Virus record (IMG/VR): IMGVR_UViG_3300050821_005343 | Location: 1-64,000 of that record | Reading direction: 5' to 3' (one strand) | Length of the DNA stretch: 64,000 nt | Source: a virus | Part shown: piece by piece, positions 323 through 41,256 of the stretch | How the letters are laid out: each line of letters begins with the position of its first letter | Numbering within the stretch: position 1 is the first letter of the stretch | Program-made: the position numbers and the translations under genes | Notes under the pieces: generated by a model | Seen by the model: only the letters and a program-made list of their open reading frames with translations | The model's database searches: none | Told to the model about the DNA's origin: nothing

Positions 323-399
323 TGGTTGCAGGGGAGGGACTTGAACCCCCGACCTCTTGGTTATGAGCCAAGCGAGCTACCGAGCTGCTCCACCCTGCT
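323..399 (-). tRNA. tRNA-Met(CAT), initiator (fMet)-like
   Basis: Reverse complement AGCAGGG TG GAGC AGCTCGGTA GCTC G CTTGG CTCATAA CCAAG AGGTC GGGGG TTCAAGT CCCTC CCCTGCA ACCA: full cloverleaf, encoded CCA, 1:72 mismatch, A11:U24 pair. Confidence 0.95.
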
Positions 400-37994: not shown

Positions 37995-38184
37995 ACCAAA
38001 CCGCAGCGAACCAAACCGTTGGATGTGGTTTTCGGTAGAAACGCCGTCCGTATTCAAGGAACACAAGCTTCCAGCCTCTAGCGCTGATTGGTCAACTGCC
38101 GATCAGCGCAAGTTCCGAGAACTTGAAACCCTAGCCGAAAACTATAGCACGCACATCCATCGATCAGGATATCGGCGTGGCTAA
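37981..38184 (+). CDS. Small hypothetical protein (moron)
   Basis: AGGAG RBS; start could also be 37975. Confidence 0.5.
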   Translation: MYHAEPNRSEPNRWMWFSVETPSVFKEHKLPASSADWSTADQRKFRELETLAENYSTHIHRSGYRRG

Positions 38185-41100
38185 CTCCGCAGCCGCCGGC
38201 CGCCCAAACATCTCCGCCGTCCAGCCCGACATAGACCGTACAAACGGCGCTATCTCGCCCTTATATTTCTCCCAGCCGCGCCGGAACGTAACCCCGGCCG
38301 GCCACGGCTGGGCGCGGACGACGTGCTTGGCCGACGGCTCCATTGGCACCCCGCATAGGATGATGCGCTCAAAGCCAAGCTTGCGGGCGATTTTGACCGA
38401 AAACAGGCCGCTTGAGCCGGCCCAGTCCTCGACGTGGTGCGTGACGTTCGGCCCGCTGCGGTGTGCCCAGACCTGAGATGGCGCCGGATGACCGTTGGCC
38501 TCACGGCGTTTAAGCCAGTCAGCTAGTTTGGTTGGGTGTAGGCTGACGGCGATGCAAGGGCCGGCCGCTTGTGGAATCATGTCGTTGATGACGAATCGGG
38601 TTACTTCGCAGCCGACGCAAAGCGCCTCGGCTTCGGCCAGCTCCTCTTTGACTCTCTCGGAGCCGCCGACCACGAGGGCGATCTTGCGGGTGGTGGGCGC
38701 GACCGGCGCGGCAACACGCCCCGGCTTTGTCGCCTCGAAGCACATGGACTCGATGCGGTTGAACTTGTCGCCAATGACGCGCCCATGGCCCTCCACGCCG
38801 CGCAGGGCGGAATGGCGGCTGATGCCCACCTGACACTGCTCAATCGCCTCAAAGCCAGCGTAGCGCAGCAGGTTGGACATTACGCTGGCGGTCCACGCCA
38901 TCTGGTGCCCGTGAGAGAACAGGATAGCCTTAAGCGCGCCCTTTAGCGTTCCGTCACCTCCGAATTTCTTGGCAAAGTCGAAATAGGCTTGGTCCGCCAT
39001 GTTGGCGATCTGCTCAACCGATGGCACGACCACTCGCAAAACGCCACCCGGAGCCAATACGCGGAACGCCTCTTCAAAGAATCCTATGGCTTGGTGGCAT
39101 GAGACGTGCTCTATGCAGTGCTCAATGAAAATGTAATAGGCGCTATTTTCTGCCCACGGCAGCGGCTGGGTTACGTCTACGTCCGCGTCGTGATTTAGCC
39201 AGCCGGATAGCTTGTTTGTGCCGCAACCGAGATTGAGGAGGAGACCGGCTTCGACCGCCGGTAAGACCCCCTTCCCTTCTTCGGACGGACCACACGCGGT
39301 CGATACTTGGGGGACCGCAGATCCTTGGCTACCGGGTTCCTTTTTCGCTGACATCGCATCTTCAAAGAACCTATCCGTAGCCCACACGTCATTGTGGCAG
39401 TGGGTGATCCAGTCCAAGCCTAAACTCAAAACATTGTCGTGCGTAATCTGATGCTTGTCGCCCCTCACGGCTTTAATCGGCAACAGAAACACATCTGATT
39501 TGATCAAGTTCGCTATTACAATTTCAGGCGTCGGAGCGACCCGCCTAGCCTTCCAGTTGTAATTCTGAATGAATCCTGAATCCCGGACATAAGCGGTCTT
39601 GAAAACCATTAGGCCGGTTTCAATCCAACCGGCTATGTCCTTCTTCATGCCGGATACTTTGGTCGTGCAGCACTCCCGCTGCGCCTGAAGCATTTGGTCG
39701 ATGAGGCCGTCCACCGGAAGGCGCAGCAGGGAGTCGCCCTCGACGTGCGCGACGTAGGTAAATCCCTCCTCGACGGCAATCTCCAGCCCCTTGCAGAAGG
39801 CGCGGCCCCAGCCGTCTTTGCCCCCGCGGCTGAGATGTCCGACATTGTCACCAAAGTCGAAAACTCGATATTGGACCGAAGGATGCTGCTTCTTCCATGC
39901 CTCGCTGACGAGGGGCAGCGGCGAGGCGCTGTCGACCAGCAAGAGCGGAGCGCCGGGGTTAAGCGCGCTGGTTAGCTCCAGCCATTGCTCAGTGAGCGTC
40001 TGGCGAGCATCGCTGTCGACGTAGGTTGTGGCGAAGATTAGGAGCGGGGAGGTCTGGGATCGTCGCTCCCCGCCCGCACAAGAAGCAATCACAGCGCCAA
40101 GATCCCCTTGGGTGTTCGCTGCGTATCCTGTGGCACCGTGTATATGCGCGAACTCGCGCACTTTGTCAAGTGCCGATGGCATATCAATCCGCTTGTCGCA
40201 AGGATGCCGTTCTGTGTGACAGTCGCACGGATTGACTGGATCAATACCCAGCGTCGGCGTTAGGTGGGCGCCGGCCGCTTGTGTCGTGCGGAAGCTTTCC
40301 CTCCCGCCGTAGACGACAACCGAAGGCAGTCCGACCGCTTGCGCCAGGACCGGAGCAAACCCGGCATTGAAGAAACCAATGTCGGCAATCGAGAACAAAG
40401 CCGCCATCGTCTCGAAATCAAGCTCACCGCTGTGTAACTTAACGTCGGCTGGCTGTTCTTCGCCGACTATCCACTCCAGCTTCGGCTCAAGGTCAGCAAT
40501 CGAGACAACGAAATACCCAGATCTAGCCGCTGCATAGAGCGCCGCATAGGCAGCCGAATCGGGGTTTCTGCTTTCACCGTTCCACTCCCGTCGACGAACA
40601 ACCGGCCGGTAGAGCATAAGCGGCTTGCCGCCCGTGTCCCACCCGGCCCGCAGCGCCTCGGCCTTCGCGCGCCATTCGGCCGGGATCGGCAACGAGAAGT
40701 CGCCCCGCTTACCCGCTAAGCCGCACTCGGCCATCATCGTCTCGAGGATAGAGCCGTAAATATCTATTTGCTCTTTTTTGTACCAAAGCTTGACGCGCCG
40801 AGCGTCCCCCGGTTCACGCGATGGTACTTTGAATAAATGCTGCTCGCGCTCGATCGTCTTGGATTGCGCGCGTAGTCTCGTCGACTTGAATGTTAGGTGA
40901 AGTCCCTCGGCGACGAGATCATGGTAGAGCTGCCAGTGGCACGTCGATAGCCAAACCTCGTGGGTTTGCATCAGCTCGCGCACGACGGCGCGCTGGTGCA
41001 AATTGTCGCCGATTCCCCACATGCCGTCGATGACAATGGCGGGCTTGGGCGTTCCTGGCGCGACCGCAGGCAGGACGAAGGGCGGCTGGGTGTCAACCGC

Positions 41101-41256
41101 CGTCACAACCATGCCGGAAGAGCGAAGCCGGTCGGCCTCCTTATCGACTAGCTCTACACCCTCAAGGGTCTTATGCGGCTGGAGATAGCGCTGTATGCTG
41201 CTCGCGTCATAGAATATGCGCAGGCTAGGGCTGGGGTTGCGGATGTTGTAGATCAT
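38164..41256 (-). CDS. Multi-domain glycosyltransferase/methyltransferase (GT9-like, GT-A-like, class I MTase, DUF115/Maf-like)
   Basis: GIGD and PC.C....C...I (GT9); LLVDS.S and VEGD (GT-A); LNLGCG, EH.IEH, RVL.PGG (MTase); ALVVGG and SSG...GF.RIILCGV. Confidence 0.85.
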   Translation of the reverse strand: MIYNIRNPSPSLRIFYDASSIQRYLQPHKTLEGVELVDKEADRLRSSGMVVTAVDTQPPFVLPAVAPGTPKPAIVIDGMWGIGDNLHQRAVVRELMQTHEVWLSTCHWQLYHDLVAEGLHLTFKSTRLRAQSKTIEREQHLFKVPSREPGDARRVKLWYKKEQIDIYGSILETMMAECGLAGKRGDFSLPIPAEWRAKAEALRAGWDTGGKPLMLYRPVVRRREWNGESRNPDSAAYAALYAAARSGYFVVSIADLEPKLEWIVGEEQPADVKLHSGELDFETMAALFSIADIGFFNAGFAPVLAQAVGLPSVVVYGGRESFRTTQAAGAHLTPTLGIDPVNPCDCHTERHPCDKRIDMPSALDKVREFAHIHGATGYAANTQGDLGAVIASCAGGERRSQTSPLLIFATTYVDSDARQTLTEQWLELTSALNPGAPLLLVDSASPLPLVSEAWKKQHPSVQYRVFDFGDNVGHLSRGGKDGWGRAFCKGLEIAVEEGFTYVAHVEGDSLLRLPVDGLIDQMLQAQRECCTTKVSGMKKDIAGWIETGLMVFKTAYVRDSGFIQNYNWKARRVAPTPEIVIANLIKSDVFLLPIKAVRGDKHQITHDNVLSLGLDWITHCHNDVWATDRFFEDAMSAKKEPGSQGSAVPQVSTACGPSEEGKGVLPAVEAGLLLNLGCGTNKLSGWLNHDADVDVTQPLPWAENSAYYIFIEHCIEHVSCHQAIGFFEEAFRVLAPGGVLRVVVPSVEQIANMADQAYFDFAKKFGGDGTLKGALKAILFSHGHQMAWTASVMSNLLRYAGFEAIEQCQVGISRHSALRGVEGHGRVIGDKFNRIESMCFEATKPGRVAAPVAPTTRKIALVVGGSERVKEELAEAEALCVGCEVTRFVINDMIPQAAGPCIAVSLHPTKLADWLKRREANGHPAPSQVWAHRSGPNVTHHVEDWAGSSGLFSVKIARKLGFERIILCGVPMEPSAKHVVRAQPWPAGVTFRRGWEKYKGEIAPFVRSMSGWTAEMFGRPAAAELATPIS
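39195..39359 (-). CDS. Overprinted ArfA-like basic peptide (alternative frame)
   Basis: KRNPVAKDLRSPKYRPRVVRPKKGRGSYRR in the +1 frame of the GT linker. Confidence 0.55.
   Translation of the reverse strand: MRCQRKRNPVAKDLRSPKYRPRVVRPKKGRGSYRRSKPVSSSISVAAQTSYPAG

Follow-up and report, generated by a model that had tools for sequence, protein, structure and literature searches.

This work describes a putative overprinted gene for an ArfA-like peptide, encoded out of frame within a phage gene for a glycosyltransferase/methyltransferase. The stretch analyzed (referred to here as the window) comprises the first 64 kb of IMG/VR virus record IMGVR_UViG_3300050821_005343, a complete 77,861-bp phage genome with direct terminal repeats. 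The nested open reading frame (ORF) lies at 39195 to 39359 on the minus strand, in the +1 frame of the enclosing enzyme gene (38164 to 41256, minus strand; a 1,030-codon ORF for a protein of 1,030 amino acids), and consists of 54 codons followed by a TAA stop, all intact. Judged from its sequence, the nested product is certainly homologous to ArfA and to a large family of small phage proteins. As the leading reading, we propose that the nested ORF is a live gene, a proposal whose chances we put at about even. This reading is favored by the homology, by features that the peptide shares with its family, by the partitioning of constraint between the two frames, by the presence of a single copy in the genome, and by precedents for overlap in other phages.

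Translated from the ATG at 39359, the nested ORF reads MRCQRKRNPVAKDLRSPKYRPRVVRPKKGRGSYRRSKPVSSSISVAAQTSYPAG, and the main frame reads ...FFEDAMSAKKEPGSQGSAVPQVSTACGPSEEGKGVLPAVEAGLLLNLGCG... across the same region; retranslation returned both exactly as they had been given in an initial annotation of this DNA. The ArfA-like core, QRKRNPVAKDLRSPKYRPRVVRPKKGRGSYRRSK, occupies 39249 to 39350 (minus strand), as delimited by an ungapped alignment with Escherichia coli ArfA, by alignments with stand-alone phage proteins (A3 and A5), and by the family profile described below. The ATG start (39357 to 39359, minus strand) is formed from the GAT codon of Asp633 and the first G of the following GCG, at the end of a helix in the enclosing protein (RFFE-D-AM). 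This position is A, K, S, or E in homologues, and Asp is unique to the window. Two other starts are in frame, a TTG at 39363 to 39365 and an ATG at 39390 to 39392. The TAA stop (39195 to 39197, minus strand) is read across CTA|AAT within the conserved W-L-N-H motif of the methyltransferase; because it arises there, the C-terminal tail of the nested peptide, PVSSSISVAAQTSYPAG, is dictated by methyltransferase motif I.

The homology with ArfA is supported by several searches. With the Pfam ArfA model (PF03889), the hidden Markov model search suggested in the initial annotation, the 54-residue ORF scores 27.3 bits against a gathering cutoff of 25.5, and the matched stretch (39252 to 39320, minus strand) covers profile positions 18 to 40 of 44. 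The margin is narrow, as a longer 65-residue version of the ORF scores 25.1 bits and a six-frame search of the genome gives 25 bits. In a sequence search of the Protein Data Bank (PDB), ArfA chains alone matched, with residues 4 to 36 of the nested peptide aligning ungapped to residues 10 to 42 of E. coli ArfA. We also built a family profile from 24 distinct stand-alone phage peptides, with the window left out. Across 7,028 six-frame segments from the window and 50 related loci, this profile scored the nested ORF at 56.0 bits (E value of 1.2e-15), and the next best segment reached 6.9 bits. A protein search retrieved a stand-alone protein of 56 residues (P0003) whose sequence is the same as that of the nested peptide over a run of 14 residues, VAKDLRSPKYRPRVV. 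The nested peptide retains all nine invariant columns of the family and carries the N-terminal signature RNP[VI]AKDLRxPKYRxR[VI]V; its Met lies 6 residues ahead of RNPVAK, the same spacing as in stand-alone members, and its length of 54 residues falls within the family range of 41 to 62. It matched phrog_20887 at 19.7 bits and gave no match to the Pfam DUF7230 model (PF23876). Across the full 77.9 kb of the genome, the nested ORF is the sole ArfA-like gene.

The family to which the peptide belongs is widespread. Back-translated pattern searches retrieved 38 and later more than 262 viral contigs encoding relatives. The phage ArfA-like, DUF7230, and phrog_20887 proteins share an N-terminal signature (K/R-R-N-P-V/I-A-K-D-L-R-x-P-K-Y-R-x-R-V-V), and the family joins the DUF7230/phrog_20887 type, defined by an N-terminal RNPVAKDLRxPKYRxRVV, to true ArfA, with its KKGKGSY tail. 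Both halves are present in the nested peptide and in two contig-encoded relatives (L032 and L135). Together with an ORF from Roseobacter phage CRP-212, these relatives make up a KKGKGSY subgroup with 50 to 70% identity over the core. Matches in GenBank phages are mainly to phages of Alphaproteobacteria, including those of Roseobacter, Ruegeria, Caulobacter (Cr30), Brevundimonas, Citromicrobium, Erythrobacter, and Pelagibacter. One of these proteins, gp10 of Citromicrobium phage vB_CbaS-RXM, already carries an ArfA annotation, and gp30 of Pelagibacter phage HTVC027P is reported to be an ArfA-domain gene with high expression both early and late (PMC12753301). The HTVC027P gene lies directly upstream of the terminase small-subunit gene. 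Most relatives stand alone, several with a clear Shine-Dalgarno sequence, whereas a conserved enzyme gene encloses the whole of the copy in the window, which falls between two folded domains.

The position of the nested ORF within the enzyme gene was examined with an AlphaFold model of the enclosing protein built with 48 homologues. The model has a mean predicted local distance difference test (pLDDT) score of 88 and four short low-confidence segments. The protein consists of a GT9-like domain (residues 74 to 358; phrog_6804), a GT-A-like domain (about residues 400 to 632), an interdomain linker (residues 635 to 670), an S-adenosylmethionine (SAM)-dependent methyltransferase domain (residues 673 to 830; Pfam Methyltransf_11 and phrog_6636), and an MptE/DUF115-like C-terminal domain. 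The ArfA-like core corresponds to main-frame residues 636 to 669, and pLDDT falls below 50 at residues 639 to 669, between a helix (residues 624 to 636) and the first methyltransferase strand (residues 672 to 675). The claim of the initial annotation that the match spans exactly the interdomain linker is thus borne out. In the alignment of homologue linkers, this disordered linker (39250 to 39342, minus strand; pLDDT of 33 to 37) is hypervariable in both length and sequence.

The conserved ArfA core falls solely over the disordered, hypervariable linker of the enclosing protein, and the variable ArfA tail falls over the conserved motif I of the methyltransferase. As such, the constrained part of each frame lies opposite the free part of the other. 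In E. coli ArfA, the part corresponding to the C-terminal tail of the nested peptide is dispensable. The core (QRKRNP...RRSK) is the sole stretch that looks foreign relative to the enzyme gene family, and the -1 reading of this DNA by the enzyme would appear to give a linker that is disordered and harmless. The three other interdomain segments with pLDDT below 50 are residues 56 to 67, 377 to 401, and 848 to 855, and in their alternative frames the family profile found no match.

The enzyme gene family provides a record of how the element arrived. The fused architecture of about 1,000 residues is common to 119 homologues with about 45 to 90% identity, many of them on contigs of 72 to 82 kb and some in Mesorhizobium genomes. 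Aligned with one another, they show a hypervariable segment between ...RFFEAAL and GL.LNLGCG that varies in sequence and in length (∼10 to 50 residues). None of the 119 homologues has the ArfA-like element, and a six-frame scan of 50 homologous viral loci with the family profile gave no ArfA-like match. We further used back-translation to count how many of the 30 core residues each homologue linker could encode in the +1 frame. All 30 positions were compatible in the window, and no homologue exceeded 17 of 30, a background level; in P0004 (88% identical) and P0005 (77% identical), the core is not encodable in any frame. Shorter pieces of the core and the other alternative frame of the homologue linkers likewise gave nothing above background. 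A decayed ArfA remnant in relatives was considered and, as far as the test can detect, rejected, since neither alternative frame of the P0004, P0005, and P0006 linkers rises above background. Four complete related genomes contain no ArfA-like gene anywhere. With P0004 as the query, a metagenome scan recovered nothing beyond two C-terminal fragments (L090 and L091), neither of which reaches the linker. Because the fused architecture is old and no homologue carries the element, the element must have entered an already fused gene in this lineage; on these sequence comparisons, it is a lineage-specific capture and not a relic of domain fusion. The initial annotation had held that homologues conserving only the glycosyltransferase frame would speak against a functional nested frame. 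They do conserve that frame alone, but trivially so, as they lack the element altogether.

The linkers of this family also vary in what they join. Among homologues P0118, P0119, P0033, and P0034, some lack the methyltransferase module, so that the GT-A-like and MptE-like domains directly adjoin, and others end in the linker. These module-lacking and linker-ending forms indicate that the linkers act as module-shuffling joints. P0034, with 665 residues, is a natural homologue split at the same linker as that occupied by the core in the window. No sign of a stand-alone arfA was seen between the halves of split P0034, whose tail is a truncated P0005-like linker. The query designated P0001 returned no close relatives in viral contigs and no blastn match in GenBank phages, and a search of NCBIfam profiles gave no match.

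Overlap with longer genes recurs across the phage family. Among the 76 distinct family cores examined, 9 (about one in eight) overlap a long ORF on the same strand, and the remaining 67 are stand-alone. In all nine cases, the frame of the longer ORF is the ArfA frame minus 1, the same relation as in the window. By our judgment, the nine overlaps form five separate groups, and the longer genes involved are real genes. One group (L035 to L039) overlaps the tail of a terminase small-subunit gene, and the recurrence of such arrangements suggests a link between ArfA-like genes and the packaging module. Pairwise codon differences within this group numbered 42 synonymous and 49 nonsynonymous in the ArfA frame, compared to 20 and 66 in the frame of the terminase tail, with variation highest at the third codon position of the ArfA frame; this is a small data set of nonindependent pairs. 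It is by analogy with this group that constraint in both frames may be supposed for the window. In L035 to L039 (e.g., L036:3960-4145), the ArfA-like ORF straddles an ATGA junction, overlapping both the terminase small-subunit gene and the gene that follows.

Among the overlaps are two in cultured roseophages. In CRP-212 (MZ892988.1, complement of 39067 to 39192; L092:1498-1623), an unannotated 41-codon ORF, MRQKNPVAKILRTPRYRQRKVMPKKGKGSYKRNTKHRKETT, includes MRQKNPVAKILRTPRYRQRKVMPKKGKGSYKRN..., has a KKGKGSY tail, and is wholly contained, as a +1 reading, in the region encoding the acidic C-terminal tail of gp38, a 1,203-residue DUF7178 protein. In CRP-13 (MW514247.1, complement of 39901 to 40026; L097:1489-1614), an unannotated 41-codon ArfA/DUF7230-like ORF overprints, in the +1 frame, the sequence for the acidic N-terminal part of gp52 and is located just ahead of the coat gene; it starts with GTG and has a GGAGG Shine-Dalgarno sequence 6 nt upstream. 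The two ORFs occupy the same syntenic spot in different longer ORFs. They resemble the nested ORF in family, in frame relation, and in an overlapped reading that is acidic, of low complexity, and probably disordered, but they differ in lying at a protein terminus beside scaffold and coat genes, where the copy in the window lies between conserved catalytic domains. Two additional copies were noted in GenBank phages. Caulobacter phage Cr30 (KF301602.1; L095:1165-1317) has an unannotated 50-codon ArfA-like ORF (…SKRNPIAKALRSSHLQPKIVKPRKGKGSFTRKGK) between two annotated coding sequences, overlapping the 3′ end of the upstream one. Ralstonia phage RsoM2USA (MG752970.1; L096:1132-1320) has a 62-codon ArfA-like ORF (…NVVAKDLRDPSGKYRMRVAKKKKGKGSFRRGKKGKHDE) opposite in strand to the hypothetical coding sequence RsoM2USA_176, which may be a miscall.

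The constant frame relation does not follow from the codons of ArfA as such. A stop-free frame opposite the ArfA codons was rejected as an intrinsic property, as just 3 of 90 family core DNAs are open there. In a simulation using the codon usage of this phage, 22% of synonymous core encodings were open in the frame of the enzyme compared to 61% in the other frame, and few AT-rich family members are open in either. Since the other frame is open more often, stop avoidance does not explain the relation. The -1 reading would instead seem to yield a Glu-, Gly-, Ser-, and Pro-rich spacer of a kind that proteins tolerate. In light of these cases, we suggest that phage ArfA-like peptides repeatedly survive as +1-frame genes in disordered linkers or tails of larger late genes, with the copy in the window as an extreme case that would be translated from a late enzyme mRNA and act on stalled host ribosomes. 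This suggestion is tentative, and we rate it at somewhat less than an even chance.

E. coli ArfA (YhdL; PF03889; PDB entries 5MGP, 5MDV, 5U4I, 5H5U, and 7OJ0) is, like the nested product, a small basic peptide. Retained in the nested peptide are Pro23 (Pro17 here), Phe25 (Tyr19 here), Arg26, Arg28, Val29, and the KKGKGSY-R tail. The positively charged stretch PKKGRGSYRRSK aligns without gaps to the C-terminal region of E. coli ArfA (KKGKGSY-R-K), which occupies the mRNA tunnel (PMC5378476). The two differ in that the nested product is phage encoded and lies out of frame inside another gene. They also differ in the design of the message: E. coli ArfA is made from a stop-less mRNA through an RNase III hairpin and feedback by transfer-messenger RNA (tmRNA), whereas the nested ORF terminates normally at a TAA, and neither a nonstop design nor a hairpin of the RNase III type was detected in its region (fold of 39180 to 39420). 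Elsewhere in the window, a tRNA-Met (CAT) gene is present at 323 to 399 (minus strand), and no tmRNA gene was found within the window.

Among embedded genes, a familiar parallel is Rz1 of phage lambda, a small ORF wholly within the larger phage gene Rz in its +1 frame. In both cases, a +1 ORF is nested in a larger gene, and both products are plausibly needed late in infection. Unlike Rz1, the nested ORF is the older reading, as indicated by its wide family, and the linker reading of the enzyme is the newcomer. The two products in the window also have no evident functional link, and expression of the nested one is a prediction.

In the mechanism that we propose, ∼100 nt encoding the core of a phage ArfA family protein would have been captured in the linker DNA of an already fused gene for a glycan-modifying enzyme. 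Capture in phase would have allowed the enzyme frame to read the insert as linker. Ribosomes on the late enzyme mRNA would start at the internal AUG at 39359 (or at the UUG at 39365) and produce a basic peptide of 54 residues, the R-x-R-V-x-x-x-KKGRGSY-R-R tail of which would enter, as the ArfA C terminus does, the mRNA tunnel left empty when ribosomes stall on broken, stop-less mRNAs. Once docked, the peptide would either recruit release factor 2 (RF2) of the host to free these ribosomes or merely occupy them. The predicted outcome is that translation capacity is kept up late in infection. Activation of RF2 is the least certain of these steps, as the N-terminal hydrophobic patch of E. coli ArfA is only partly kept.

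The alternative that weighs most is that the element is a silent passenger, i.e., that the linker was recently rebuilt by illegitimate recombination from a fragment of a phage ArfA-like gene and that the main frame alone is used. We regard this as a substantial possibility, though one clearly short of an even chance. The +1 ORF would then be intact because there has been too little time for decay. Several observations count against a live gene. The element is absent from the 119 homologues and 50 related loci, and from the closest homologues (88 and 77% identity) in particular, so the capture is perhaps recent and intactness is no proof of selection. No GGAG-type Shine-Dalgarno sequence precedes the ATG at 39359, although many genes of the phage have GGAG or AGGAG at 6 to 10 nt; the nearest candidate, GGATAGG, ends 10 nt before this ATG and 4 nt before the TTG at 39365. 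On the strand of the gene, no internal sigma-70-like promoter was found, and the RNA fold of 39180 to 39420 gave no significant structure (z = -0.29), a single 6-bp stem at about 39245 to 39263 being discernible by eye. Codon statistics, expressed as the log-likelihood difference between a coding and a +1 frame, favor the main frame (+7.5) over the alternative frame (-7.7), the latter score being unremarkable for a +1 frame (25% of such frames reach it); the codon usage and GC3 test leans toward the main frame, and the Lys/Arg-rich composition of the nested frame penalizes it. The start and stop codons derive from the enzyme sequence and could be fortuitous, and translation of the nested ORF is predicted from sequence. 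Moreover, Leu19, Leu24, and Phe25 of E. coli ArfA bind Trp319 of RF2, and Ala18 packs in the N-terminal fold (PMC5378476); the residues aligned with Ala18, Leu19, and Leu24 are Lys, Asp, and Lys. The hydrophobic patch of Ile11, Ala18, Leu19, and Leu24 is thus replaced by Arg, Lys, Asp, and Lys, and these charged residues render RF2 activation uncertain. The silent-passenger account gains further from the finding that 22% of core encodings are open in the frame of the enzyme, such that a tolerated in-phase insertion is not rare, and from the recombination-prone nature of the family linkers, as seen in homologues that are split or lack the methyltransferase. It accounts less readily for a core without any decay, in which the invariant positions are kept and differences from the nearest members are conservative (R/K and S/T), or for an ATG that lies at the family-typical distance and depends on an Asp633 unique among homologues. 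The element is also the sole ArfA-like copy of its genome, and comparable overlapping copies elsewhere have a strong Shine-Dalgarno sequence or frame-specific constraint.

The remaining explanations fare worse. The ArfA homology proposed in the initial annotation stands, and the live nested gene that it offered as one option now leads, but neither of its two other options is upheld. In one of these, a +1 (or -2) shift at GCG AAA AAG G would append an ArfA-like tail to the C terminus of the glycosyltransferase. The A5 run (39341 to 39345, minus strand) does lie just upstream of the core and inside the nested ORF; a shift there yields ...MSAK-RNPVAK..., and the arithmetic of the initial annotation, in which deletion of one A gives MSAKRNPVAK, is correct. 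Even so, the run has only five A's, a length confirmed by other contigs, no known +1 signal was seen by eye, and the next 0-frame codon is not a stop. Although G AAA AAG is similar to a -1 site, a -1 reading runs for just 3 codons and never enters the ArfA frame. In addition, 67 of the 76 distinct cores stand alone, and none of the 76 is in frame inside an ORF of at least 150 residues (two are in ORFs of 124 to 142 residues; longer in-frame fusions were not searched for). An N-terminal extension of 640 residues seems unlikely for a peptide that binds the decoding center (as judged from PMC5378476), relatives lack the context of the site, and the local fold is not significant. We consider a frameshift product very unlikely. 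As a separate observation, the main-frame G AAA AAG at 39338 to 39347 (minus strand) resembles a dnaX-type -1 slippery heptamer; a -1 shift there would reach a stop after 3 codons (GGA ACC CGG TAG) and give a truncated protein with two glycosyltransferase domains and no methyltransferase. In the other option, glycosyltransferase, arfA, and methyltransferase genes merged and arfA was then read through out of frame. This would fit a core that fills the interdomain gap exactly, but the fusion is ancient (homologues at 45 to 90% identity share it free of ArfA, as do the 50 viral loci), their linkers differ and cannot encode ArfA, and four complete relatives have no ArfA-like gene; we find a relic of this kind extremely unlikely. 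Finally, as the window is a metagenome assembly and linkers that are acidic or Gly-rich tend to give an alternative frame rich in Lys and Arg, an assembly or sequencing artifact or a chance resemblance due to basic composition was considered. Contigs without differences from two further runs cover 39268 to 39660, a long open main frame with conserved flanking domains would need two compensating errors, and the contrast of 56 with 6.9 bits, together with the 14 consecutive residues identical to P0003, leaves chance or artifact scarcely credible.

The read check of the A-run suggested in the initial annotation supports the same conclusion. The two difference-free contigs (X2, 39268 to 39411; X3, 39329 to 39660) derive from two other soil runs, perhaps of the same sampling campaign as the window, and both have five A's; matching contigs from two other runs make a homopolymer or assembly error unlikely. 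Variant contigs (80 to 95% alike) span the flanking domains and become sparse over the linker, and one departs at 39246 into an unrelated linker (...SISSPVQSP-GLLLN). The genome is carried by soil metagenome runs, five soil DNA runs being listed; no RNA run carrying it is among the sequencing runs listed.

Embedded phage genes are textbook knowledge, and phage-borne ArfA-like genes have been annotated before. Our literature searches turned up no case in which the linker of an unrelated enzyme harbors, out of frame, a translation-factor gene that is old and widespread. If the nested gene is live, gene callers would systematically miss part of the phage repertoire for ribosome manipulation; copies in two cultured roseophages (CRP-212 and CRP-13) and in Caulobacter phage Cr30 are themselves unannotated. 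Disordered linkers would then be landing pads in which a foreign gene is tolerated because the frame of the enzyme reads it as a harmless spacer, and the usual scenario for overprinting would be reversed, with the nested frame ancestral. Were this reading true, translation-factor genes that overlap other genes and escape annotation would constitute a class. Alphaproteobacteria are usually said to depend on tmRNA and ArfB, not on ArfA, and the finding bears on why their phages carry ArfA-like factors.

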